Positions 1,972 through 22,612 of a DNA stretch of 50,775 bases are shown here, piece by piece (position 1 is the first letter of the stretch; every line of letters begins with the position of its first letter). The notes beneath the pieces are model-generated. The model was not told where the DNA came from, ran no database searches, and saw only the letters and a program-made list of their open reading frames with translations. The stretch lies in NCBI GenBank assembly GCA_027035985.1, contig JALVTI010000030.1, forward strand, positions 1 through 50,775. The letters run 5' to 3'. Both the position numbers and the translations under genes were made by a program. Source of the DNA: Aquificales bacterium (lineage in GTDB: Bacteria > Aquificota > Aquificia > Aquificales > QOAS01).

Positions 1972-2271
1972 CTATTCGTTTCTATATAAGCTCGCTACAC
2001 AATGACCACAGATATTAATACCAGATAAAACTTGTAGGCTTTCAGCGACTGCCAAAGCTTCGTTTTTGGATAAATTTTCAAATGGCTTAAATATACTTCT
2101 ATTTACATAGATACCCATTTCTTGACAATTTGTTTCATTTATTGTTCCACATAATGCCCTTCCATTATTCAAAATATGAACCTCTCTTGTGTTTTCATAA
2201 AAACAAAGAGCGTATCCCATTGCCACATACCCCCCTAATGAAATTTGTTTTCCTAACGAACAATTTATCAA
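1972..2271 (-). CDS. small Cys-rich hypothetical protein, directly upstream of and co-oriented with the P-loop gene
   Basis: 99-codon ORF with six Cys, including ICGHC near the C-terminus. The ORF-track start is TTG. A better start is ATG at 2220 (MGYALCFYENT...), 9 nt after a GGGGGG Shine-Dalgarno-like run. A 53-nt gap to the next gene suggests an operon. I recognise no family. Confidence 0.35.
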   Translation of the reverse strand: MINCSLGKQISLGGYVAMGYALCFYENTREVHILNNGRALCGTINETNCQEMGIYVNRSIFKPFENLSKNEALAVAESLQVLSGINICGHCVASLYRNE

Positions 2272-2532
2272 GAAAGTTCCGTAATGTCAACACTATTTGT
2301 ATAACCTTCAAATTAACCTAATTAAGGAGTTAGGAAAGTGGTTTTTCAATGTTTCTCTACTAATTGTGGGAGCTTTAATCATTCAACCATTTATGAAAGA
2401 CTCTTTATCCAAAAAGTTAGTAGGTATAGGATTACTAAAATTTACTTAACGATTTTGTTTGTATGAACTTAGAAGGAAAGGAAAAATTTAGGGAACATCC
2501 TTGTTTCCTTTCTTCTTTATCGGAAAACATTT

Positions 2533-2889
2533 CTATAAGATGTTTCCAACTTTTACTTGAACATCAATAATATCATAATCAACTATGGGAACTAACTTCC
2601 TACCTTTTCTTTCAAGTTTCAGAAAACCCGCTTTTTCTAAAAGAATCACATCCTCGTAAATATTTTTGTAATCCCTGTTTACGATTTCCGCAAGCTGCTT
2701 AAGGGAAGAAGGTTTTTTATTTTTTATCACATCAAGTAACTTTTTCCTTTGGGGAGTTAGAATACGGTTTAATTCCTCTATAGACCCAACGGAAATATAT
2801 TCAATTTTTCCTTTTTGAGTAGCAACTGTTTCCTTTATTTCTTCCCAAAATTCGTTGAAATCTTCAACAATAACTTTTTTAACCTTCAT
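2533..2889 (-). CDS. TumA-like / HVO_A0114-family winged-HTH antitoxin
   Basis: 118 aa. The segment LTPQRKKLLDVIKNKKPSSLKQLAEIVNRDYKNIYEDVILLEKAGFLKLERKGRKLVPIV matches the MarR-like HTH pattern of antitoxins paired with DUF6516 toxins. It overlaps the upstream gene by 4 nt (ATGA), indicating coupling. Confidence 0.65.
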   Translation of the reverse strand: MKVKKVIVEDFNEFWEEIKETVATQKGKIEYISVGSIEELNRILTPQRKKLLDVIKNKKPSSLKQLAEIVNRDYKNIYEDVILLEKAGFLKLERKGRKLVPIVDYDIIDVQVKVGNIL

Positions 2890-3215
2890 ATTTCAACCTC
2901 CTTTAAAAGTTCTTTTAAATCTTTTTTGAAATCTTCCAATAGGTTATCTATGCTTTCAAATCTATAAATGTGTCTTTTTCCTTTTATATGCTTGTGGTGT
3001 CCCTCACATCTGTGGTTATCGTATCTCAAAAATTCTCCATCAAATTTTCCTGAACATTCGTCGTATAACGCAAAAACTAAAGAATATTTGTAACCTTCGG
3101 GGTAGCAATTATCTTTCCTTACTCTCCATATCTTTATTTCCAATATTCCCAGAAGTTTTCCTTTCTTGGAGAATATAGGTCTTTTAACGTGAAGTTCCAA
3201 TTCAGCATTAGGCAT
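2886..3215 (-). CDS. TumE-like (DUF6516) toxin component
   Basis: 109 aa. The His-rich core LRYDNHRCEGHHKHIKGKRHIY resembles the (Y)DN.PHH...HHKH signature of the DUF6516/TumE family. It is the first gene of a two-gene operon with the HTH protein. Confidence 0.6.
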   Translation of the reverse strand: MPNAELELHVKRPIFSKKGKLLGILEIKIWRVRKDNCYPEGYKYSLVFALYDECSGKFDGEFLRYDNHRCEGHHKHIKGKRHIYRFESIDNLLEDFKKDLKELLKEVEI

Positions 3216-3234
3216 TATGGTTTAATATACCATA
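3216..3234. promoter_or_regulatory. inverted repeat TATGGT-N7-ACCATA abutting the start codon of the TumE-like gene; possible autoregulatory operator or 5' hairpin
   Basis: Read directly: tatggt ttaatat accata, immediately 5' of ATG 3215 on the minus strand. TA operons are commonly autoregulated through palindromic operators. Confidence 0.3.
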
Positions 3235-3415
3235 AAAATTAATAAACATTTCCGCAGTGTTCTATTCGGATAACGAGAATAATTATCTGAATACCTCGTC
3301 CGCGGGTATAACTTCGGTTTTACCTTCTTTCAGTTTTTTCAAGCTCTCGGGCTAATGCTTCATCAAGGTTTATATTTAGTTTTAACCACTAAAGTGTGTA
3401 TTATTGTGTGTATTT

Positions 3416-3805
3416 TTATACTCCTACCTTTGTTTTAAACAATTCATTTAACAATTTACTTATTGTTAGTGCTATCTGTACCAATTCTTTTCTGGAGAAT
3501 TTAGGAGCTTCTAATAACTCTAGACCGGTATTTCCTACAGTGTTTCCTTTTCCTTTAACAAATCTTTTGATAAGTTCTAGGTTTTCTTCTATTTGTGGGG
3601 TAATTTCGTAACCATGTTCGGTTTTCTTAGGAATACCACCTTCCAAAGTGATAATTCCCTTCGGTTTAAGAATTGTTTCCCTGTAAGAGAGATGGATTTC
3701 TTCGGAGACTTCGCGGGAACCCAGTTTTAAATAAACCGTTCCATTATCTAGGGTTCCAACCTCTAAAGGTGCATCGGGATAAATTGCTTTAATACCTTCT
3801 GCCAA
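3416..3805 (-). CDS. hypothetical 129-aa protein downstream of an AbrB-type antitoxin; candidate unassigned toxin
   Basis: ORF with a TTG start. GGAGGA lies 13 nt upstream and AAGGAGG 20 nt upstream. I can see no PIN, MazF, RelE or Doc motifs. Its position after an AbrB/SpoVT-fold gene is typical of a toxin. Confidence 0.45.
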   Translation of the reverse strand: MAEGIKAIYPDAPLEVGTLDNGTVYLKLGSREVSEEIHLSYRETILKPKGIITLEGGIPKKTEHGYEITPQIEENLELIKRFVKGKGNTVGNTGLELLEAPKFSRKELVQIALTISKLLNELFKTKVGV

Positions 3806-3832
3806 TTCTTTAAAAAATTCCTCCGCCTCCTT

Positions 3833-4099
3833 TTAAGCTCCTCTTAATAAGTAATATTCCTCCCTGTTAAGGTCTTTCAGAGAGGTTTGAGGTAATTTTC
3901 CTATTTGCGGTTTTCTTCGGAGAATTACTTCTCCTTTGGATGGGTTTACTTCTGCAATAATTTCCCCACCATTTTTGTAGTCTATTCCCAAAGTTTCCAA
4001 AAACAACTTAGGTAGATTTATATTTCCCCGACTGTAAACTTTGAGTCGGGTTAAAGCAAATTCTTTTTCCTTTTTGGGTTTGGCTATTAACAACTTCAT
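3833..4099 (-). CDS. AbrB/SpoVT/MazE-type antitoxin-like DNA-binding protein
   Basis: Swapped-hairpin pattern RGNINLPKLFLETLGIDYKNGGEIIAEVNPSKGEVILRR. The ORF track extends to 4183, but ATG 4099 (MKLLIAKPKK...) is preceded by GAGGGG at suitable spacing, so I use 4099. Confidence 0.6.
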   Translation of the reverse strand: MKLLIAKPKKEKEFALTRLKVYSRGNINLPKLFLETLGIDYKNGGEIIAEVNPSKGEVILRRKPQIGKLPQTSLKDLNREEYYLLRGA

Positions 4100-4121
4100 T
4101 TTTATCCCCTCATTGGAATAA

Positions 4122-4478
4122 TACTCAGTAGTTTTCAGACTTTTTGACGAAAATGCGGAACATGATTTAAAGGAAGAAATCAAACAAATTTTGTTTAATG
4201 AGTGAATTTTTATTCCCTGTGAAGTAATAGTAGAACTGTCTTACCTTTTAAGGACGAGGTTAAAAAAGAGTAAACCCGAAGTGGTGGAAATTGTTTCCTG
4301 GCTATTTTTAAGGGAGAATGTGGAACTTGAACCCGAATGTCTATCCGCTTTAAGCCTTTGGAAAAACTCAACTTTGGATAAATTGGTAGATGCTCTAATA
4401 ATTGTAAAGTCCAAAAAAAGGAATTGCTTATTAGTTACCTTGGATGAGGAAATGTTTAAAGTTTATAGTGAAATGTAA
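4122..4478 (+). pseudogene. decayed PIN-domain (VapC-like) gene: no start codon and an in-frame TGA at 4203-4205
   Basis: The frame is open from 4122. It reads ...FRLFDENAEHDLKEEIKQILFNE*IFIPCEVIVELSYLL...LVDALIIVKSKKRNCLLVTLDEEMF. PIN-like acidic positions are present (FD, VxE, D-A-L-I, VTLD). There is no ATG/GTG/TTG upstream of the first acidic motif. The ORF track lists only the GTG-started tail, 4281..4478. Confidence 0.45.
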
Positions 4479-4488
4479 AAACCTAAAT

Positions 4489-5268
4489 TTAGTCCACCCC
4501 CAAACACCCCTTACACACCCTAATCTCTCTAAAGCGGAAACCTCCGTTTTCCTTCCTCTCGGGGTAGGTTATAACAGCCAATTCCTCTATAGGTTTTTCC
4601 ATTCCGCACTTCTCACAACGGAGGGTAGAAAATTTTTCCACCGCCAAGTGGTTGTTTAGAAACTTATCCATATAGGGATTCCAAATCGTTAAAAGTTCAA
4701 ACTCCGAGAGGATATCGATTAAATTGTGTTGCGCTATTAGGTTTAAGGGTTCCAAGTTTCCACTCCTTAGGTGTTCTTCCCAAAGGTTTTTAACCTCTCC
4801 GCTGTCTATGTCCCAATCGGAAAAACCGAAATAGTGGAAAAATCTCGGATGTATCAACTCACGGAGTTTGGGAGTTTTATGCCACCTCTTTAGGTCTCTT
4901 ATTTTGTAGGTTATACCCATTGCGGGTTTCATTATTTCTTTAACCCGCAATTGGATACCTAAATGGGTTCTAAGCCATTCACTCTCAAAGGGAGCGTTGT
5001 AGGCATAAAACTCCTTTTCACGTGCGAGTTTTTCTATAAACCCTTTAAATTTGGAATAAAAATCCTCCTTGCCAAGTTTTTTGGTTCTCAAAAGCACAAT
5101 TGCGGTTTTTCCGTAAACGAATCCTCCGCAAATGATTTCTCCCTTTTGCGGGTCGTAATCGGTGGTTTCGAAGTCTAAAACAACCCCTTCGAAGTTTACT
5201 TTTGGTTGCAACTCCAAAAGGATGTAATAGAGTCCATCTCCATTTAGTTTGCCGTTTACCAAAACCAT
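4489..5268 (-). CDS. RNase H-like-fold 3'-5' exonuclease (DEDD/YprB-like) with C-terminal Cys4 zinc ribbon
   Basis: 259 aa. Exo I is VVLDFETTD. Exo II-like is AYNAPFESEWL. Exo III-like is AQHNLIDIL. The C-terminus carries CEKCG...(27 aa)...CKGC. Confidence 0.65.
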   Translation of the reverse strand: MVLVNGKLNGDGLYYILLELQPKVNFEGVVLDFETTDYDPQKGEIICGGFVYGKTAIVLLRTKKLGKEDFYSKFKGFIEKLAREKEFYAYNAPFESEWLRTHLGIQLRVKEIMKPAMGITYKIRDLKRWHKTPKLRELIHPRFFHYFGFSDWDIDSGEVKNLWEEHLRSGNLEPLNLIAQHNLIDILSEFELLTIWNPYMDKFLNNHLAVEKFSTLRCEKCGMEKPIEELAVITYPERKENGGFRFREIRVCKGCLGVD

Positions 5269-8200
5269 TTGTTTTGCTAATTATTTTAATATGATTTACC
5301 AGCTTAGGGAGGAACCCCAAAGGTGTTTGACCCTAAAAGAGGAAGTTTTCAAAAAATTTATAGAACTGTTTAAAGAAAAATTGAAAAAGCAATCCTCTTT
5401 TAGGAACGGGGAAGATGTTTTCAATTTTTCCAAAGAGGTGGCGATAGAGTTCGAAAAGAGATTCCCGAAAATATCCGAAGTTTTTAACGGAAAACCCTGC
5501 GATTGTAAAAAATTCTTTGAAATTTTTACCGAAAAGCAGTTGGCGGAGATAAGAAAACTTTCAAAGGAAATCCAAATAAATGTAGAGTTAAAAAGCTTTA
5601 AAGAGTCTTTGGAGGATTATGTAAAACAGAATTTTGAACTTTTTAAAAAACGTCTAAAGGTAGAGGGATATACCGAAGATGAGATAAAAAAGGCATGGGA
5701 AGAAAATTTCAAATTTTTTGAGGGACTAATAAAGGAAGATACAACCTACTACACCCGAATAGCCTCTTTGAGGATAAAGGATAAAACGGAAAAACCCAAC
5801 GAGTCCGACCCTTACTTTTTGACTTACCTATTGGTGTTTGAATTGGAGAAAAGCTCCCGCTCGGAGGAATTTAAAAACCTAAAGGAATCCCTTTTCGGGG
5901 GAAAAATTGAGTCGGTTGAGGAAACTTTAAAAGAATTGGTCGCCCAAAAGTGGGAGAGTAATGTTGACGAATTGTTAGCAGACCTCGGTATAGTTGACGA
6001 AGATTTTGACAACAAATGGGAGGAAAAGAGGGAGGATATTCTTAAAATCGTTGAGGACCTATTCGATGCAATAGATTCCACCGTAAGGAGCAGAATAGAG
6101 GCCGAACACTTTAGGGATTTAATAGAGTTTGCCAAAGAGAGGATTGAAGACAGAAATTTATCTGAACCTTTAAAAGTAATTGAAGAAAACCTAAACCTTT
6201 TAAGGGAAATTTACGAAAACAATGCCGATTTGGGGAACATAATCGTAGAGGCTATCCCCGTAGGGTTTGAATTTTGGGACAAAATAACCGATTACGCGGT
6301 TGAGAAAGACTTTAGGCACTTCCTATACACCTACAAAATGAAAATTAACGACATTGCGGAAGGTGCAATAGATAACCATTTGTTAAAACCCAAATGGGTT
6401 AAATTGCCCGACATAAAAAACCGTGCGGATTACTTTATCGCCCAAGGGATACTTTTTAAGGAAATAGTTAGGAATTTAGACACTATAGAAAATGAAAAAG
6501 AAAAATTGGGAACCGATGCGGTTAAAAAACTTCCCTCTTACCTAAAGGGTTTTATAAAGGCACTCTTCTATTACGGGAAGGCGGATATAGAAACCATTGA
6601 GAGGTTTTATAACTACTACGAACAGGTTCAAGTTATAGTCTCCAATTGGTTGGCAAGAAGGAGTGACGAGAGAACCTTTAGCGAAACGGATAGGGAATTT
6701 TTAACCCGAATAGGGGATGAAATTGAAAGATTACTCCCACCGTTGGAGGGAAACAAAGAACGATTTGAGGAGCTTTACGGATATATAGCTCAAAACCTAA
6801 TAAAGGAATTTGTTGAAAAGGTTCTACCCTCCAACGGTAGGGAGCTTTTCGTCGCGGTGGATTTCCATTCCTTGGCGGAGGCTACAAAAAGATTCCTTTC
6901 TGATGGAGAAAGACCTTCCAAAACCCGCATTTATAGGGGTCTTTTGAAAGTCCTAACCCAAAAGGAGGAACTGGAAAACTTCGAATACATCTTTAGGGTG
7001 AAAAATGCCGTTCAAAACCACTTATTGGATTTGGATAGAGAGGTTTCCCCTAAATTGGAGAAATTGAAACCTATAAAAGACCTGAAAGGGTTTTTCACCT
7101 TAACGGCGGAACTATCTGACGAGCGGCTACCTAGTGAGAAACAATCTTTTAAATTGGGATTTATTTTAAGTTTCCTTTTGCTAACCTCACTAATAGCCTC
7201 GCGAAGCGGGGGAATTTTAGAGGGTTTTTCACTACCCCACTCCTTCAGTGATAGGGAAGACGAGATAATAAACAGATATAGAGATTTACTCTATGCACTT
7301 GTAGGGGCTTCGGTTTTTGCGATAAATTCCGACAAAGTAGCGGCGGTTCAAAACTTTAATTGGAGTAATGTATTTAAAAAAGAACCTTTTAGAAAAGATA
7401 AAAATAAAAACCTCTACAAGGCTATAAATAACCTTTTAAATACCCGTTTGTTGGTGAACAGTAAAATTAAAAACGGCTTAACCTCCCTCTATTCCAATCT
7501 ACCCTTTGAGGTTGAAGGTTTAAACCTAAGCCAAAAAGTGGCAATCTTGGCACTTTCCCACCCTACGAAGGTGGATAAAAACTTAAAAGCCGTTTTGGGG
7601 GAAGCTTACATTTTTGAACCCATCAAGGGAAAGGATTTGTTTAAAACCTCCAAAGGTGTAAGAGTTTTTAGGAAAACCTTTAGTGGTGTTTACAGCTTTA
7701 TAGAAAAAGACCAAAAAGGGGAATTCGCGGATTGCAAGACCGTTTTGAGTGATTTCCTAAAAACTTTAAAGAAACTCGGGGTGGAAAAGGTCTATTTAAT
7801 TCCACCCTTACCCATATATAGGGGTTTATCAACAAAGGAGGACTTTTTAAGGGAGCTCTATTTCTCCGACCTACTTGCGGAGGTTGGGGAGGAAATTGAA
7901 ATACCTCTAAGGTTGGTTTTCTCGAGCTTCGGAATAGTTTATACCCCCGAGCTAAGCAACTTCAAAAGGAGAATAAAGGAATTTCTGAAAAAGGAAGGTT
8001 TAATTATTAAAACGGACAAGAAAGGAGAAGAAAAGAGGGGAATAATAGCGGTAAACCTGTTTAAAAACATTGAGAAAATAACCCCGCGGAGCGGGGCTAT
8101 GCCATTTATTACCCCGAAATTTGCGATAATTCCGCTCTTTTCTATGGAGGAGGGCAAGGAGGGAAGCGTTGAAAAGACGCTATTCCACCACGCGTTTATA

Positions 8201-8533
8201 TACTCCGTTCCCAACCACCGACTCTTTGAGGGAGTCCATCCCGAAAAGTTGTTCCTCCGAGAGGAAGAAAAGAACGAATTGGCAAACCTTTTGAGTGTGG
8301 TTCATTTAATCCAATACCAAAAAGGGGAGGATATTAAAAAGACCAAAAAGGGAAATATATGGGAAAAGACCTTTAAGAGGAACCCCTTTTATGTCCTTCC
8401 CGAAAGGAGGAGTGGGGATAAGAATATTCTTGCACTTACGGAGGTGGAAATTTTCTTTAACTCCGATGTCCGTCCGAGGTTGCAAACGGTTCTAACCGCC
8501 TTTAGGTTGTGGGATGCGGTTAGAAACCCTTAG
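5249..8533 (+). CDS. very large (about 1080-1094 aa) hypothetical protein with no recognisable family
   Basis: Uninterrupted 3.3-kb ORF with protein-like composition throughout. The ORF-track start is TTG 5249, which overlaps the divergent exonuclease gene. ATG 5291 (MIYQLREEPQ...) is the first ATG. I found no Walker A, DEAD/DExH, HD, GGDD or HNH motif by eye. Confidence 0.7.
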   Translation: MPFTKTICFANYFNMIYQLREEPQRCLTLKEEVFKKFIELFKEKLKKQSSFRNGEDVFNFSKEVAIEFEKRFPKISEVFNGKPCDCKKFFEIFTEKQLAEIRKLSKEIQINVELKSFKESLEDYVKQNFELFKKRLKVEGYTEDEIKKAWEENFKFFEGLIKEDTTYYTRIASLRIKDKTEKPNESDPYFLTYLLVFELEKSSRSEEFKNLKESLFGGKIESVEETLKELVAQKWESNVDELLADLGIVDEDFDNKWEEKREDILKIVEDLFDAIDSTVRSRIEAEHFRDLIEFAKERIEDRNLSEPLKVIEENLNLLREIYENNADLGNIIVEAIPVGFEFWDKITDYAVEKDFRHFLYTYKMKINDIAEGAIDNHLLKPKWVKLPDIKNRADYFIAQGILFKEIVRNLDTIENEKEKLGTDAVKKLPSYLKGFIKALFYYGKADIETIERFYNYYEQVQVIVSNWLARRSDERTFSETDREFLTRIGDEIERLLPPLEGNKERFEELYGYIAQNLIKEFVEKVLPSNGRELFVAVDFHSLAEATKRFLSDGERPSKTRIYRGLLKVLTQKEELENFEYIFRVKNAVQNHLLDLDREVSPKLEKLKPIKDLKGFFTLTAELSDERLPSEKQSFKLGFILSFLLLTSLIASRSGGILEGFSLPHSFSDREDEIINRYRDLLYALVGASVFAINSDKVAAVQNFNWSNVFKKEPFRKDKNKNLYKAINNLLNTRLLVNSKIKNGLTSLYSNLPFEVEGLNLSQKVAILALSHPTKVDKNLKAVLGEAYIFEPIKGKDLFKTSKGVRVFRKTFSGVYSFIEKDQKGEFADCKTVLSDFLKTLKKLGVEKVYLIPPLPIYRGLSTKEDFLRELYFSDLLAEVGEEIEIPLRLVFSSFGIVYTPELSNFKRRIKEFLKKEGLIIKTDKKGEEKRGIIAVNLFKNIEKITPRSGAMPFITPKFAIIPLFSMEEGKEGSVEKTLFHHAFIYSVPNHRLFEGVHPEKLFLREEEKNELANLLSVVHLIQYQKGEDIKKTKKGNIWEKTFKRNPFYVLPERRSGDKNILALTEVEIFFNSDVRPRLQTVLTAFRLWDAVRNP

Positions 8534-8562
8534 AGGGTTCTTCCTTTAATCTTTTCCCCTTT

Positions 8563-9117
8563 ATGGGGAAGGTTTTGGTTATTTACGACTCCGAAACGGG
8601 GAACACCGAAAAAATGGCTCACCTCGTGGCGGAGGGTGCAAGGAAGTTCCCCGTGGAGGTTAGGGTTAAACATGTGAAGGATGCCACTAAAGAGGACATC
8701 CTTTGGGCGGACGGTCTGGCTGTGGGAAGTCCGACCTATTTGGGCGGTATGTCTTGGAGGCTTAAAAAGTTCTTCGACGAGATTAGCGACGAGCTTTGGG
8801 GTGAAATAGACGGGAAAATCGCCTGCGCCTTCTCCTCCTCCGGCGGGTGGGGAGGCGGCAACGAGATAGCCTGCCAAAACATACTGATGATGCTGATAAA
8901 TTACGGCTTTCTGGTTTTCGGGGTAACCGACTATGTGGGAAAGAAATTCACCCTCCACTACGGGGCTGTCGTTGCGGGAGAGCCGAGAACGGAGGAGGAA
9001 AAAAATGCCTGCGTAAGGTTGGGTGAAAGATTAGCCCAATGGGTGTTGATTTGCAAAGACTGCAAAAGGGAGTATTTGGAGAATTTGAAACCTCCCGAGA
9101 AGGACGAAGAGGATTAA
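8563..9117 (+). CDS. flavodoxin-fold NAD(P)H:quinone oxidoreductase (WrbA-like)
   Basis: N-terminal KVLVIYDSETGNTEKMA FMN-binding loop, then GSPTYLGGMS and SSSGGWGGGNE, all typical of the WrbA/flavodoxin-like family. Confidence 0.75.
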   Translation: MGKVLVIYDSETGNTEKMAHLVAEGARKFPVEVRVKHVKDATKEDILWADGLAVGSPTYLGGMSWRLKKFFDEISDELWGEIDGKIACAFSSSGGWGGGNEIACQNILMMLINYGFLVFGVTDYVGKKFTLHYGAVVAGEPRTEEEKNACVRLGERLAQWVLICKDCKREYLENLKPPEKDEED

Positions 9118-9125
9118 AAACCTTC

Positions 9126-9150
9126 CCCGCCGCTTCGCGGCGGGCTTTTT
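9126..9150 (+). terminator. rho-independent terminator after the flavodoxin-like gene; possibly bidirectional with leuA
   Basis: The stem CCCGCCG (9126-9132) pairs with CGGCGGG (9138-9144), with loop CTTCG, followed by CTTTTT. On the minus strand a T-run follows 6 nt after the stem. Confidence 0.6.
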
Positions 9151-18838: not shown

Positions 18839-21800
18839 TTAGACCTCCACCTCGGGGAAAACGGGCTTTTCAACCTTGCGGATGTAAACCACCTCGTCCC
18901 TTTGGGTTCCGGTGGGTCCGTAGTAGTTGAAACCGTAGGCGAGCTGCGCGTAAGCGCCCACCGCGTGGGTCGGTTTTATGTGGATTTTTGCCGCTGCGTT
19001 GTGGGAACCGCCCACCTGACCGGTGGTTTCGCTTATGGGAACGAAGATAGTCCTATCCTGGGCGTGGTACATAAAGGCTGTTCCCCTCGGTATCCTGTGG
19101 CTAACAACGGCGCGGGCTACAATTACCCCGTTTCTGTTTACCAATTCAATCCAATCGTTGTCTTTTACCCCTATCTCTTTGGCATCCTGGTCGTTAATCC
19201 AAACGTACTGCCCGCCCCTAAAGAGGGTTAACATCCTGATGTTGTCAAAGAAAGTGGAGTGAATATGCCATTTACCGTGGGGTGTTAGATAGCGCACCTT
19301 AATGGTTTTCGATTTTTTAACCGTTTCGGGAACCTTTTCGTCGAACTCAAAGGGTTGCAGTTTTAGGGGCGGTTTGTATACGGGCAGAGCCTCGCCTATT
19401 TCTAAAAAGAGCTCGTGGTCGAGCATAAACTGCTGCCTACCGGTTAGGGTTCGGAAAGGTATCAGCAGTTCGGTGTTATTTGTAAAGGGAGCGAAACGCC
19501 TGGGGGCTTTCATATGGGTTATATCGGGCACGGGCGGTTTTTCGTCGAACTTTTCCCAAATCTCCTGTAGGTGCCTGTAATCCTCGGTGTTTCCGGTAAA
19601 TATCGGCGTGGAGACCGTAACCCTGGGTTGGATGGACAGGTCGTCGAAGGTGAACTTTTGGGCTTCGTAGTCTTTTGCCACATCGGAAATCGGCAGACCG
19701 GTTTTCTCCTCGGCATTCTTCCAAGCCTTGGAGGCGACGCGCCCGTTGGAGCAGCTGGAGAGCGTCAATACCATATTAGCCGCCTGCTTTGCGTATTCGA
19801 TGTTTGGCTTACCCGCCGCGGCTCCGTCGTCGCGGGTGCCGAGGAGTTCCTTCAGCTCCTCGTATTCCTCTTTTGCAGACCACTTCCACCCGTGGGCTCC
19901 GAAGGGTTTTTCCGCTACGAGGGGTCCCACCGAAATGTATTTGTTGTAAATCTGGGTGTAATCGCGCTCGACTATGGCTATTTGGGGCATAGTCTTGCCC
20001 GGTATGGGTTCGACCTCGCCCTTTTTCCAATCCAACACCTTACCGTAGGGCTGGGCTATTTCGAAGGGGGTGTCGTGCATCAAGGGTACCGTTACTACAT
20101 CCTTGTAGGTGCCGGGAAGGTGTTCCTTCGCCAGCTCGGAGAACTTCTTCGCCAATCCTTTGAAGATATCCCAGTCGGAACGGGCTTCCCAAGGCGGGTC
20201 TATTGCGGCGTTGAACACGTGCAGGAAGGGGTGCATATCGGTACTGCTCAGGTCTTCTTTCTCATACCAGGTAGCCGCCGGTAGAACGACGTCGGAGTAT
20301 AGGGCTGTGCCCGCTATTCTGAAGTCGAGGTTTACAACCAGGTCGACTTTACCGATAGGTGCGGGAGTTCTGACCTTTACCTCCTCGGGTTTTATCGGGC
20401 TGTCCTCGGCGAGCAAGCCGCCGTTTTCTGAACCGAGCATATGCTTGATGAAGTACTCGTGCCCCTTACCGCCCGCCGACAGCCAGTTAGCCCTCCAAAC
20501 GAAGAAGCTCCTGGGGAAGTTTACCGGGTTGCCGGGGTCGGCTACCGCAAAGTCGAGCTCCCCTTTCTTGAGCTGTTCGACCACGTATTTGACTATTTCC
20601 TCGTTGCTCTTAGCCCCGTTTTGCTCCGCCTCTTTCGCCAGCTCTATGGAGCTCTTGTTAAACTGCGGGTAGTGGGGAAGCCATCCGAGCCTTACCGCCA
20701 GATAGAGGTAGTCGGCGGGGTGTTTGTAGCGGGGTTTAACCAGCGGCGAGGCGAGGTTTTCCATATCGATGTCTTCGTAGCGGTATTGCTCGCTCGCGAA
20801 GTAGTAGAAGGTCGTCGCGTTCTGAACTCTGGGGGGCAGATGCCAATCCCTCGCAAATGCCAAGGTAGCCCACCCCTCGAAGGGTCTAACCTTTTCCTGT
20901 CCGACGTAGTGAGCCCAGCCGCCGCCGTTTCTACCCTCGGAGCCGGTGAGCATCACCAGGTTGAGAATCGCCCTGTAGATGATGTCTGCGTTGTACCAGT
21001 GGTTGATACCGGCTCCCATTATTATCATCGAGCGGCCTTTCGTAAGGGCGGCGTTGCGGGCGAACTCCCTGGCAATCCTTATAACCTGCTCGGCGGGAAC
21101 GCCGGTGAATTTCTCCTGCCATTTGGGGGTGTGGGGTTGGTCGTCCTCGTAGGATTTGGGATAGCCCTCCTCGACGCCGGGACGGGCTACACCGAAGTTC
21201 GCAAACATCAAATCCAACACGGTGGTTACGTAAACCTCCCCGTCGGGGGTTTGAAGTTTTTTTACCGGTATAGCCCTCTTTAGGACTCCCTTGGTTTCGT
21301 CGTCGAAGTAGGGGAGTTTTACCGTTACAACCTCGTCGTGGATACCCAAAAGGGTCAGTGCGGGGTCTATTTTGTTCCCCTCTTCGTCCTCCAGCTTTAG
21401 GTTCCACTTTTTGGAGTCTTCCCAGCGGTATCCGACCGTTCCGTTGGGGAGAACCGGTCTGTTCGATTTTTGGTCCCAAACGACCAGCTTCCACTCGGCG
21501 TTGGACACATCCTTACCTATATCGGTTGCCCTTAGGAACCTCTCTATAACAAAGCCGTCATCCTCTTTTTTAAGGAGCACCAAGAAAGGTAAGTCGGTGT
21601 AGCGCTTTGCGTATTCCTGAAAGTAGGGCTCCTGATGGTCGGCGTAAAACTCCTTTAGGATAACGTGGGTCATTCCCATTGCGAGGGCGCCGTCGGTTCC
21701 CGCCCTCACCGCTACCCACTCGTCGGCGAACTTGACCGATTCGGCGTAGTCGGGGCTTACCGAAACAACCTTTGCGCCTTTGTAGCGCACCTCGGTCATA

Positions 21801-22612
21801 AAGTGGGCGTCGGGCGAGCGGGTCATAGGAACGTTGGAGCCCCACATTATGAGGTAGTCGGCGTTATACCAGTCTCCACTTTCGGGGACGTCGGTCTGCT
21901 CTCCCCATACCTGCGGAGATGCGGGAGGTAGGTCGGCATACCAGTCGTAGAAGCTGAGCATAGTCCCGCCGATGAGCGATAGAAACCTCGCACCGGAGGC
22001 GTAGCTCACCATCGACATCGCCGGTATGGGGGTAAAACCGGCTATCCTGTCGGGTCCGTATTTCTTAATGGTGTGTATGAGCTGCGAGGCGATAAGCTCG
22101 TAGGCTTCGTCCCAGGAGACCCTTACAAATCCGCCCCTACCCCTTTGGGATTTGTATTTCCTCTCCTTCTCGGGGTCGCCGAGGATTATTTCCCAAGCCT
22201 TTACGGGGTCGCCGCCGCTTTGCTTTTTAGCCTCCCTCCAGAGGTCGAGCAAAACACCCCTTACGTAAGGGTATTTAACCCTTAGGGGGCTGTAGATATA
22301 CCAGGAGAAGCTTGCACCCCTCGGGCATCCCCTCGGTTCGTATTCGGGAAAATCGGGACCCGTCGAGGGGTAATCTATAGCCTGGTGCTCCCAGGTGATG
22401 ACGCCGTTTTTCACATATACCTTCCAACGGCAGGAACCGGTGCAATTAACCCCGTGGGTGGTATAGACAAATTTGTCGTAACTGTAGCGGTTTCTATAAA
22501 AATCCTCCCACTCCCTGTCGTAGGACATTAGGGCGGAGTGTCCCCCCGAATACTTTTCCCTGGCGGTGAAGTGCTTCAACCGCCTGAGCAGGTATGAAAA
22601 TTTCCTCTTCAT
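18839..22612 (-). CDS. narG: respiratory nitrate reductase alpha subunit (Mo-bisMGD)
   Basis: 1257 aa. N-terminal FS0 motif HGVNCTGSC. Molybdopterin-oxidoreductase architecture throughout. AAGGGGGA Shine-Dalgarno lies 6 nt upstream of the ATG. Confidence 0.92.
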   Translation of the reverse strand: MKRKFSYLLRRLKHFTAREKYSGGHSALMSYDREWEDFYRNRYSYDKFVYTTHGVNCTGSCRWKVYVKNGVITWEHQAIDYPSTGPDFPEYEPRGCPRGASFSWYIYSPLRVKYPYVRGVLLDLWREAKKQSGGDPVKAWEIILGDPEKERKYKSQRGRGGFVRVSWDEAYELIASQLIHTIKKYGPDRIAGFTPIPAMSMVSYASGARFLSLIGGTMLSFYDWYADLPPASPQVWGEQTDVPESGDWYNADYLIMWGSNVPMTRSPDAHFMTEVRYKGAKVVSVSPDYAESVKFADEWVAVRAGTDGALAMGMTHVILKEFYADHQEPYFQEYAKRYTDLPFLVLLKKEDDGFVIERFLRATDIGKDVSNAEWKLVVWDQKSNRPVLPNGTVGYRWEDSKKWNLKLEDEEGNKIDPALTLLGIHDEVVTVKLPYFDDETKGVLKRAIPVKKLQTPDGEVYVTTVLDLMFANFGVARPGVEEGYPKSYEDDQPHTPKWQEKFTGVPAEQVIRIAREFARNAALTKGRSMIIMGAGINHWYNADIIYRAILNLVMLTGSEGRNGGGWAHYVGQEKVRPFEGWATLAFARDWHLPPRVQNATTFYYFASEQYRYEDIDMENLASPLVKPRYKHPADYLYLAVRLGWLPHYPQFNKSSIELAKEAEQNGAKSNEEIVKYVVEQLKKGELDFAVADPGNPVNFPRSFFVWRANWLSAGGKGHEYFIKHMLGSENGGLLAEDSPIKPEEVKVRTPAPIGKVDLVVNLDFRIAGTALYSDVVLPAATWYEKEDLSSTDMHPFLHVFNAAIDPPWEARSDWDIFKGLAKKFSELAKEHLPGTYKDVVTVPLMHDTPFEIAQPYGKVLDWKKGEVEPIPGKTMPQIAIVERDYTQIYNKYISVGPLVAEKPFGAHGWKWSAKEEYEELKELLGTRDDGAAAGKPNIEYAKQAANMVLTLSSCSNGRVASKAWKNAEEKTGLPISDVAKDYEAQKFTFDDLSIQPRVTVSTPIFTGNTEDYRHLQEIWEKFDEKPPVPDITHMKAPRRFAPFTNNTELLIPFRTLTGRQQFMLDHELFLEIGEALPVYKPPLKLQPFEFDEKVPETVKKSKTIKVRYLTPHGKWHIHSTFFDNIRMLTLFRGGQYVWINDQDAKEIGVKDNDWIELVNRNGVIVARAVVSHRIPRGTAFMYHAQDRTIFVPISETTGQVGGSHNAAAKIHIKPTHAVGAYAQLAYGFNYYGPTGTQRDEVVYIRKVEKPVFPEVEV

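Follow-up and report, generated by a model that had tools for sequence, protein, structure and literature searches.

A candidate Argonaute-like protein that is linked with a helicase in Aquificales and in cyanobacteria

A stretch of 50,775 nucleotides (nt) of DNA from an Aquificales bacterium (contig JALVTI010000030.1), which as a whole is referred to here as 'the window', contains a long open reading frame (ORF) that an earlier note, made by eye, had described as the likely core of an undescribed system. We read this ORF, at a probability of roughly 0.6, as encoding a protein that belongs, though highly diverged, to the Argonaute/PIWI structural superfamily, that is, an inactive sensor which is coupled to a helicase and employed against foreign DNA. 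The parts of this reading vary in their strength. That the C-terminal region of the protein is MID- and PIWI-like and works with the helicase we consider to be quite probable, while a role in defence against mobile DNA, which we infer, has even or slightly better than even odds. In the Aquificales loci that were recovered, the ORF, a DEDDh exonuclease and the helicase constitute a conserved module, and the linkage of ORF and helicase is conserved across two very distant bacterial groups, i.e., with the pair recurring in cyanobacteria and Chloroflexota. This conservation, along with a lack of family matches, agrees with what the earlier note had proposed.

The ORF and its predicted fold

The ORF runs uninterrupted from 5249 to 8533 on the forward strand, giving 1094 codons as counted from a TTG at 5249, with its first 14 codons overlapping the start of a divergent exonuclease gene. 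As the N-termini of all homologues coincide with the residue encoded by an ATG at 5291, the gene most likely begins instead at that ATG, specifying a protein of 1080 amino acids (aa; Table 1). It is, as had been claimed, the longest non-housekeeping ORF, at least in the sense that within the window only NarG (18839..22612, 1257 aa) is longer. Homologues number seven, full or partial, at 36-82% identity, and a copy that is 92% identical is present on an Aquificales metagenome-assembled genome contig (L012). Relative to the latter the ratio of nonsynonymous to synonymous substitution (dN/dS) is 0.134, indicating purifying selection. The uninterrupted ORF that was noticed by eye is, that is, a genuine gene under purifying selection.

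The protein indeed is also an orphan. Scans of Pfam, NCBIfam and PADLOC return no match for the window protein, a profile of its family finds nothing among PDB sequences, and when 1.84 billion representative proteins were searched exhaustively with a profile there were 12 matches, all belonging to the same narrow Aquificales family or to fragments of its members. Homologue searching with a mixed alignment of Aquificales and cyanobacterial sequences recovered Aquificales proteins only. Plasmids yielded no match to the window protein, neither a CRISPR array nor an Rfam element was found near its gene, and literature naming these proteins or their accessions was not found in a search having most subscription journals outside of its range.

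It is from predicted structure that a possible identity emerges. A first AlphaFold model, based on seven sequences, had a mean predicted local distance difference test score (pLDDT) of 49 and displayed weak Foldseek matches to NurA, RNase HI, RuvC and PIWI domains. A second alignment consisted of 43 sequences, including 29 cyanobacterial and Chloroflexota partner proteins (described below), and the resulting model had a pLDDT of 70.7 and a predicted template modelling score (pTM) of 0.60. Upon comparison of this second model with 350,542 PDB chains, more than 35 of the best 42 Foldseek matches were to Argonaute-family proteins, many at probabilities of 0.95-1.00. The best of these was to the Archaeoglobus fulgidus Argonaute, AfAgo (6t5t_A; E 2.3e-4, probability 1.00), with an alignment of 397 columns, gaps included, against a MID+PIWI chain of 404 residues. 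Next came the short prokaryotic Argonautes (pAgos) of SPARDA and SPARTA, SIWI, human AGO1, PliAgo and RsAgo, followed by NurA and RNase HI. The earlier note had offered an RNase-H-fold or PIWI-like C-terminal domain purely as speculation, and model and structure search both point toward just such a domain.

The model may be divided into three regions (Table 1), the boundaries between the latter two being inferred from predicted secondary structure rather than being aligned ranges. The first is the helix-rich N-terminal half, which had been described by eye and which AlphaFold reproduces. Its 600 residues have no structural or sequence match to known proteins. A conserved beta-hairpin within it carries the motif IPVGF...F.YTYK.K.ND, and three residues, K351, V370 and Y428, do not vary across 40/40 sequences from the Aquificales and cyanobacterial clades. 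The second, a Rossmann-type and MID-like domain, possesses a set of conserved polar residues: Y/F620, H650, Q687 (42/42), N728, S732 and Y734. Also here is the hydrophobic stretch LGFILSFLLLTSLIASRSGG (residues 622-641), which had been picked out by eye. As it lies within a confident predicted helix (618-638) of the alpha/beta domain, this stretch is read as a core helix rather than as a membrane segment.

The third region, PIWI-like and predicted to have an RNase H fold, has in the model strands at 750-755, 765-779 and 788-802, which are followed by a helix (808-828) and a further strand (833-837), the overall order being beta-beta-beta-alpha-beta-alpha-beta. An alternation of short strands and helices over the last ~430 residues had been described previously, and the segments named at that time, VAILALSH, KVYLIPPLPIYRGLS, IPLRLVFSSFGIVY, GIIAVNLF and KFAIIPLFS, correspond without exception to predicted strands (750-755, 833-837, 873-885, 918-924 and 940-951). 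Conserved residues within this region are S756 (43/43), G770, E771, T796, P841, N922, Y971, H1005 and K1029.

No aspartate is conserved between residues 600 and 1080 across the 43 sequences, and with it the catalytic DEDX tetrad of active Argonautes is missing. After the first core strand comes the invariant S756, and after strand 833-837 comes P841, roughly at the positions where one would expect catalytic aspartates. The domain, if it is a PIWI domain, would appear to be inactive, which is consistent with the existence of inactive Argonautes, having either lost its acidic catalytic residues or never had them. 'Degenerate', as the earlier note had put it, hence seems an apt term. The YRG (843-845) that the note had set in the place of the Argonaute RDG, by contrast, lies in a low-confidence loop (841-856) and is not conserved outside of the Aquificales.

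The helicase partner and a wider family

The helicase-like neighbour of the ORF likewise had been recognized by eye, and its gene is cut by the window edge (1912..<1, reverse strand). A tblastn search with the helicase of another Aquificales locus (L001) aligns with the window in one piece at 61.5% identity over residues 5-630. Full-length proteins are ~1150 aa in Aquificales and ~1150-1220 aa across the family, and dN/dS as calculated relative to L012 is 0.137. Pfam returns a weak but recurrent Helicase_C signal and no DEAD or DUF1998 match, PADLOC and NCBIfam return nothing, and helicase profiles retrieve from among PDB chains only the generic RecA2 domains of HrpA and DDX proteins. Motifs common to 81 full-length sequences consist of a Walker A, G.PGIGKT(T/S), along with DE(I/V)TG, DAS, TSSASRG and Q..(F/Y)RGRG, and as judged from these motifs the core is of the superfamily 2 (SF2) type.

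Ahead of the helicase core is an N-terminal domain of ~380 aa having as invariant residues E12, D137, D154-x-S156 and K242-x-x-Q245-x-x-x-Y249. RecB/Cas4 nucleases display the pattern D...(D/E)xK...QxxxY, and the E...D...DxS...KxxQxxxY residues of these helicases may form a nuclease site of that type. C-terminal to motif VI, i.e., after ~822, there is no acidic residue that is conserved in at least 93% of the 81 helicases, and conserved acidic residues outside of the helicase core are, that is, E12, D137 and D154 of the N-terminal domain. Cysteines at positions conserved to at least 93% in the same 81 sequences consist of only two single ones, both limited to cyanobacteria, and with no cysteine cluster among conserved positions a DinG-type iron-sulphur (Fe-S) cluster motif therefore is not apparent.

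Distant relatives of this helicase, at 21-26% identity over full-length alignments, are encoded by cyanobacteria. Scanning a single genome for each species resulted in at least 337 confirmed genome stretches that encode such relatives, mostly from filamentous cyanobacteria (Microcoleus, Nostoc, Trichodesmium, Planktothrix, Fischerella and Dolichospermum) and also from some Chloroflexota (Ktedonobacter and Dictyobacter). On viral contigs there were none. Of 76 non-Aquificales loci that were examined, nearly all for which upstream sequence exists possess, directly upstream of the helicase gene and co-directional with it, an ORF of ~1000 aa that is without a Pfam domain. Both genes are present in 71 of 89 loci, and most of the loci missing one have no sequence on that side. 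Gaps between the partner and helicase genes are mostly from -34 to +30 nt, implying an operon. Cyanobacterial and Chloroflexota partner proteins are annotated throughout as 'hypothetical protein'.

Is this partner related to the Aquificales ORF? Comparison by hhalign of the Aquificales profile with a 64-sequence cyanobacterial partner profile gave a probability of 89% (E 2.2e-6, 311 columns), with the match spanning columns 603-985 of the Aquificales profile (A1), which is shown as window residues 619-1017. Shared as well are the motifs K(I/V)KNGL(T/S)SLYS.LP, (L/V)GE(A/V), NLF and H..(Q/R)(Y/F)(Q/E)K. The C-terminal ~380 aa of the cyanobacterial partner are, by the profile match, homologous to the ORF. 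Searches of one family with a hidden Markov model (HMM) of the other, that is, of HMM against sequence, were not significant, nor was profile-profile comparison of the two N-terminal halves (E 0.036).

Some of the copies lie on plasmids, and others are split. Partner-helicase pairs that are at least 97.8% identical are found on six conjugative plasmids from Aulosira, Trichormus, Microchaete and Tolypothrix, as well as in a Fischerella genome sequence, an identity across genera that implies recent horizontal transfer. On plasmid C of T. variabilis ATCC 29413 (L090 8515-15221) the pair has as neighbours a site-specific integrase and a DDE transposase. Two Aquificales contigs (L002 370-3593 and L006 4278-7420) carry the Argonaute-like gene as two separate ORFs, and split or fragmented copies are seen also in L048 and L053 and as Planktothrix and Ktedonobacter fragments. 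Such copies could represent recurrent inactivation or instead assembly errors. Around 40 cyanobacterial loci there was neither a third conserved gene nor enrichment for defence genes.

The Aquificales locus

The exonuclease of the Aquificales loci is ~260 aa in length and is absent from cyanobacterial loci. It possesses the motifs DFETTD, YNAPFE and HNLIDIL plus a C-terminal CxxC...CxxC ribbon and, as had been proposed by eye, is a DEDD exonuclease, specifically of DEDDh type (Table 1), that is located head-to-head with the ORF. In the window the two start codons are 22 nt apart. The same head-to-head arrangement is seen in L001, L003, L004, L005, L006 and L012, i.e., in every Aquificales locus that covers this flank, the contig of L002 being cut on the exonuclease side, and where contigs are long enough (L001, L003, L006 and L012) the helicase gene then is found downstream of the exonuclease. 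The co-localization to which the earlier note had tied its proposal, that is, is what is found: The exonuclease adjoins the ORF in Aquificales, and the helicase is its partner in Aquificales as well as in cyanobacteria and Chloroflexota.

The divergent start codons are 22-27 nt apart in every Aquificales locus (window 5268-5291; also L001, L003, L005 and L006), and the spacer is A+T-rich, lacks a Shine-Dalgarno sequence and is too short for two canonical promoters with 5' untranslated regions. As a consequence, the exonuclease and Argonaute-like transcripts may be leaderless, or promoters may be located within the opposite coding region.

Table 1. Features of the window that are discussed in the text, with those of the ORF listed first
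Feature	Position	Strand	Remarks
Argonaute-like protein gene	5291..8533	+	1080 aa, stop codon included in span; listed ORF start TTG 5249
N-terminal half, residues 1-600	5291..7090	+	mostly long helices plus conserved beta-hairpin ~322-352 (model secondary structure)
MID-like Rossmann-type alpha/beta domain, residues ~601-742	7091..7516	+	beta-alpha-beta-alpha-beta-alpha-beta order in model
PIWI-like RNase-H-fold domain, residues ~743-1080	7517..8530	+	model, Foldseek and hhalign; apparently without catalytic acidic set
Partner SF2 helicase, N-terminal 637 aa	2..1912	-	gene leaves window at left edge
DEDDh 3'-5' exonuclease, 259 aa	4489..5268	-	PF13482 RNase_H_2, E 3.7e-9; motifs in alignment
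Variable small-gene cassette, between exonuclease and helicase genes	2438..4501	-	GC 0.31-0.35
TumE toxin	2886..3215	-	Pfam match
HVO_A0114 winged helix-turn-helix	2533..2889	-	Pfam match
Two ORFs in cassette	3416..3805, 3833..4183	-	no family match

Between exonuclease and helicase genes the window carries a cassette of small genes. Its slot is empty in L001, L003 and L006, and in L012 different genes are found there despite flanks that are 89-92% identical. The cassette probably is cargo rather than part of the core module, and its site looks like an insertion hot-spot within that module. Where a crowd of toxin-antitoxin modules had been described, one pair, TumE/HVO_A0114, can be recognized, with other small genes lacking matches, and as the cassette is variable across loci these toxin-antitoxin genes are a variable insertion rather than the module's context as such. 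Directly upstream of the helicase start there is in addition a cysteine-rich ORF of 99 aa (window 1972-2271, reverse strand) with no family match. In L012 this DNA is conserved and has an ORF at the matching place, while the other Aquificales loci leave no space for one.

The A+T-rich island that the earlier note described is readily seen, with GC of 0.31-0.39 across 2-8 kb versus ~0.5 over the remaining window, the latter being ordinary chromosome (NarGH, LigA, PolX, PNPase, FliD and tRNA-Lys). The note's 'classic' defence island is borne out only in part, as the small toxin-antitoxin-like genes are a variable insertion and as cyanobacterial copies are found mostly among housekeeping genes.

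After the ORF there follows, in all Aquificales loci, a flavodoxin gene as syntenic neighbour. A hairpin with a T-run (window 8548-8574, forward strand) is situated immediately past the stop codon of the ORF, where it overlaps the start codon of flavodoxin (8563), and a strong bidirectional terminator-like hairpin is located after flavodoxin (9126-9144). ORF and flavodoxin may be co-transcribed, or instead the first hairpin may attenuate read-through.

This neighbour also supplies a yardstick for divergence. Relative to L012, dN/dS is 0.13-0.14 for all three module genes. Between the window and L001, module genes are 54-67% identical (dN 0.24-0.37) versus 94% (dN 0.038) for flavodoxin (window 8563-9117, L001 9507-10040), i.e., a divergence that is ~10-fold that of the adjacent gene. 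Such divergence could have arisen through very rapid evolution or else through replacement of alleles at a locus that stays fixed, and for conflict genes it is typical that alleles at one locus diverge so quickly. The A+T-rich island, fast divergence, cargo hot-spot, split copies and plasmid copies serve together as supporting, if indirect, signs of a conflict system.

Possible function, alternatives and known systems

How might such a module work? As a first step the Argonaute-like protein would recognize some nucleic-acid feature of invading DNA, this being either a small guide paired to its target or instead a DNA end or structure that is held in the MID-like pocket. It would then recruit or unlock the helicase, giving rise to unwinding and to translocation along the DNA, with that DNA subsequently degraded by the helicase's N-terminal domain and/or by an exonuclease. 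In Aquificales only, the DEDDh exonuclease, with its zinc ribbon, would assist in the degradation. Of this scheme we infer the binding of a guide or target, the formation of a complex, the nuclease activity and the role in defence. Going further, and at odds which we would place a little short of even, this could be an unrecognized PIWI-superfamily lineage that is invisible to sequence profiles, possesses an N-terminal architecture of its own and is firmly tied to a new family of SF2 helicases. It tentatively would be a guide- or DNA-structure-directed interference system, widespread in filamentous cyanobacteria, to which a hyperthermophile variant, that of Aquificales, has added a DEDDh exonuclease.

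A number of points weigh against the reading of an Argonaute-like sensor acting in defence. Support for it is wholly computational, and the assignment to the Argonautes depends on predicted structure alone. Template modelling (TM) scores as normalized to the target are low (0.33-0.35), with root-mean-square deviations (rmsd) of ~9 A, and the Argonaute match consequently is an assignment of fold class rather than a close match. Parts of the PIWI-like domain are of low confidence in the model (841-856, 905-965 and 1010-1043). Neither Pfam Piwi (PF02171) nor pPIWI_RE is matched by the window protein or is among the 25 most frequent families for the 43 members at E<=1, and solved Argonautes, as PDB sequences, are unmatched by profile searches. 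The canonical MID 5'-phosphate motif, Y-K-Q-K or more generally Y/H/R-K-Q-K, is not evident among conserved positions, though as a partial analogue Y/F620, H650, Q687, N728 and K749 are conserved and could line a pocket. A Pfam scan of 34 helicase N-terminal domains returned no nuclease family, making nuclease activity in the helicase a motif-level guess. Beside the cyanobacterial copies lie for the most part housekeeping genes, plus some Uma2 and DUF29 genes, so that the defence-island context is weak in cyanobacteria. The Aquificales locus, lastly, is syntenic (flavodoxin, MurC and TruD), which could fit with a lineage-specific housekeeping or repair function.

These last considerations lead to what among alternatives survives best, if still as unlikely, which is that the module processes DNA ends or repairs DNA, i.e., as a NurA-like RNase-H-fold protein in combination with a helicase and a 3'-5' exonuclease, similar to HerA-NurA or to MrfAB. 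MrfAB consists of the YprA helicase and the YprB exonuclease, with YprB a member of the PF13482 family, as too is the exonuclease here. Consistent with repair as well are the NurA structures among the Foldseek matches of both models, a synteny beside flavodoxin, MurC and TruD that extends over several genera, and the predominance of housekeeping genes beside cyanobacterial copies. Argonaute matches, however, rank above those to NurA and cover MID as well as PIWI, there is no conserved counterpart of the NurA catalytic acidic residues, and the partner is an SF2 helicase lacking a DEAD or DUF1998 match rather than a HerA-type hexameric ATPase. Nor would one expect of core repair a patchy distribution, near-identical copies on conjugative plasmids, frequent split copies or divergence that is ~10-fold faster than that of a neighbour, to which core repair is ill-suited.

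Alternatively, the C-terminal region might be a generic RNase-H-like scaffold, with its likeness to Argonautes an artefact of modelling or of Foldseek and the protein a structural or regulatory subunit of the helicase that is devoid of Argonaute-type sensing. This we view as improbable. It would account for the low TM-scores and high rmsd, for the lack of PIWI or MID signal in sequence and of a clear Y-K-Q-K pocket motif, and for a search of BFVD structures in which matches were only to RuvC and RNase H, with weak E-values. It accounts less well for the predominance of Argonaute-family proteins among the best 42 matches out of 350,542 chains. The AfAgo alignment, moreover, extends over nearly the whole of the MID+PIWI chain, that is, beyond an RNase H core of ~150 residues, and a Rossmann-type domain is found directly N-terminal to the RNase-H-fold domain, just as in Argonautes.

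Least probable by some distance is that the module benefits the mobile elements on which it resides, for example via plasmid competition or exclusion or via processing during conjugation or integration, rather than serving host immunity: Six conjugative cyanobacterial plasmids do carry it, next to an integrase and DDE transposase on plasmid C of T. variabilis, TraG/TrwB-type genes are among its neighbours and the window copy is in an A+T-rich island, but most copies are chromosomal with no conjugation genes nearby, Aquificales copies occupy a stable chromosomal locus, viral contigs have no relatives, and mechanistically the idea overlaps with that of an Argonaute-like sensor plus helicase, as DdmDE and ApsAB are themselves anti-plasmid.

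What then would the preferred reading, i.e., of a divergent Argonaute-like sensor with a helicase, mean? Argonaute-like proteins acting with helicase-nucleases, as in DdmDE and ApsAB, are a recently recognized bacterial route to plasmid elimination, and our finding suggests a further Argonaute-like family, one that is 'hypothetical protein' to every profile library searched and that surveys of pAgos based on PIWI sequence profiles would miss. The helicase's relatives are found in ecologically important cyanobacteria (Trichodesmium, Planktothrix, Microcoleus, Nostoc and Dolichospermum) along with a thermophilic branch, and presence of the module could help to explain barriers to the genetic manipulation of filamentous cyanobacteria. 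If the further-going reading, of a PIWI lineage invisible to sequence profiles, is true then the module might supply thermostable, programmable nucleic-acid-binding proteins, and, if guide-directed, its thermophilic version could serve as a tool. Two or three genes would suffice for a direct test of the hypothesis.

Various known systems resemble the module to differing degrees. HerA-NurA membership is excluded by the weaker NurA matches, by the lack of conserved acidic residues and by a partner with Helicase_C (SF2) that is not HerA. Druantia III (DruH-DruE) is similar in having an unannotated protein of ~1000 aa encoded just upstream of a helicase-nuclease. In that system, a 3'-5' exonuclease activity prepares DNA for the helicase, and DruH consists of immunoglobulin (Ig)-like domains flanked by helical domains (bioRxiv 10.64898/2026.05.13.724313). 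The exonuclease activity has a parallel in the DEDDh exonuclease here, but DruH is Ig-like whereas the ORF is MID+PIWI-like, and membership is excluded by this fold of DruH, by the lack of DUF1998 and by the lack of a PADLOC match, as far as that library includes Druantia models.

The best structural matches are to AfAgo, SPARTA and SPARDA, i.e., to short and long-B pAgos, in which a MID+PIWI lobe lacking the catalytic tetrad functions as a sensor that is dependent upon an effector. There the effector is TIR, SIR2, DREN or HNH while here it is a helicase, and the present protein differs also in having no Pfam Piwi match and an N-terminal half without APAZ, N or PAZ match.

With pPIWI-RE, operons encode a PIWI protein together with helicase and nuclease, in the strict order of restriction endonuclease (REase), DinG and PIWI (Burroughs, Iyer & Aravind 2013, PMC3702460). 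Likeness exists in a PIWI-superfamily protein of ~1000 aa with an uncharacterized N-terminal region, in an SF2 helicase plus nuclease, and in cyanobacteria and Chloroflexi being among hosts. The Pfam models pPIWI_RE, MID_pPIWI_RE and pPIWI_RE_X nevertheless are unmatched by the window protein and absent from the 25 most frequent families listed for the 43 members at E<=1. The PIWI gene, which is last in pPIWI-RE, is here either first (cyanobacteria) or divergent (Aquificales), DinG is an Fe-S helicase whereas no Fe-S motif is apparent here, and in place of an REase there is, where present, a DEDDh exonuclease. Pfam non-match, gene order and helicase type together exclude membership.

Closest in logic are DdmDE of Vibrio cholerae and ApsAB of E. 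coli ST38, each an Argonaute-like protein plus helicase-nuclease that effects plasmid elimination (PMC11096173; bioRxiv 10.1101/2024.05.10.593530), with ApsAB-like systems reported as well from cyanobacteria (PMC11096173). Differences begin with sequence: Profiles A1, A4 and A5, as searched against PDB chains that are understood to include DdmD and DdmE, list neither at E<=10, and no PADLOC model is matched by either protein of the module. The Argonaute-like gene is downstream in those systems but first or divergent here, their PD-(D/E)xK nuclease is C-terminal whereas the candidate nuclease residues here are N-terminal to the helicase core, and their Argonaute-like protein is ~700-740 aa versus 1000-1170 aa, with its helical N-terminal half, here. 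The Aquificales branch adds as well a DEDDh exonuclease. No sequence relation found with DdmD or DdmE, a reversed order and a different architecture thus exclude membership in DdmDE/ApsAB. What is shared is a pair of genes, one for an Argonaute-like protein that, here probably, does not itself cut and the other for a large (~1200-1450 aa) SF2 helicase with a destructive activity that here is putative, along with a distribution that is patchy and horizontally mobile. A sensor-helicase logic is established in the case of DdmDE, and for ApsAB and pPIWI-RE it is a proposal (bioRxiv 10.1101/2024.05.10.593530; PMC11096173; PMC3702460). The present module, if it does represent an unrecognized PIWI lineage, would be an independent evolutionary solution that is parallel to all three.

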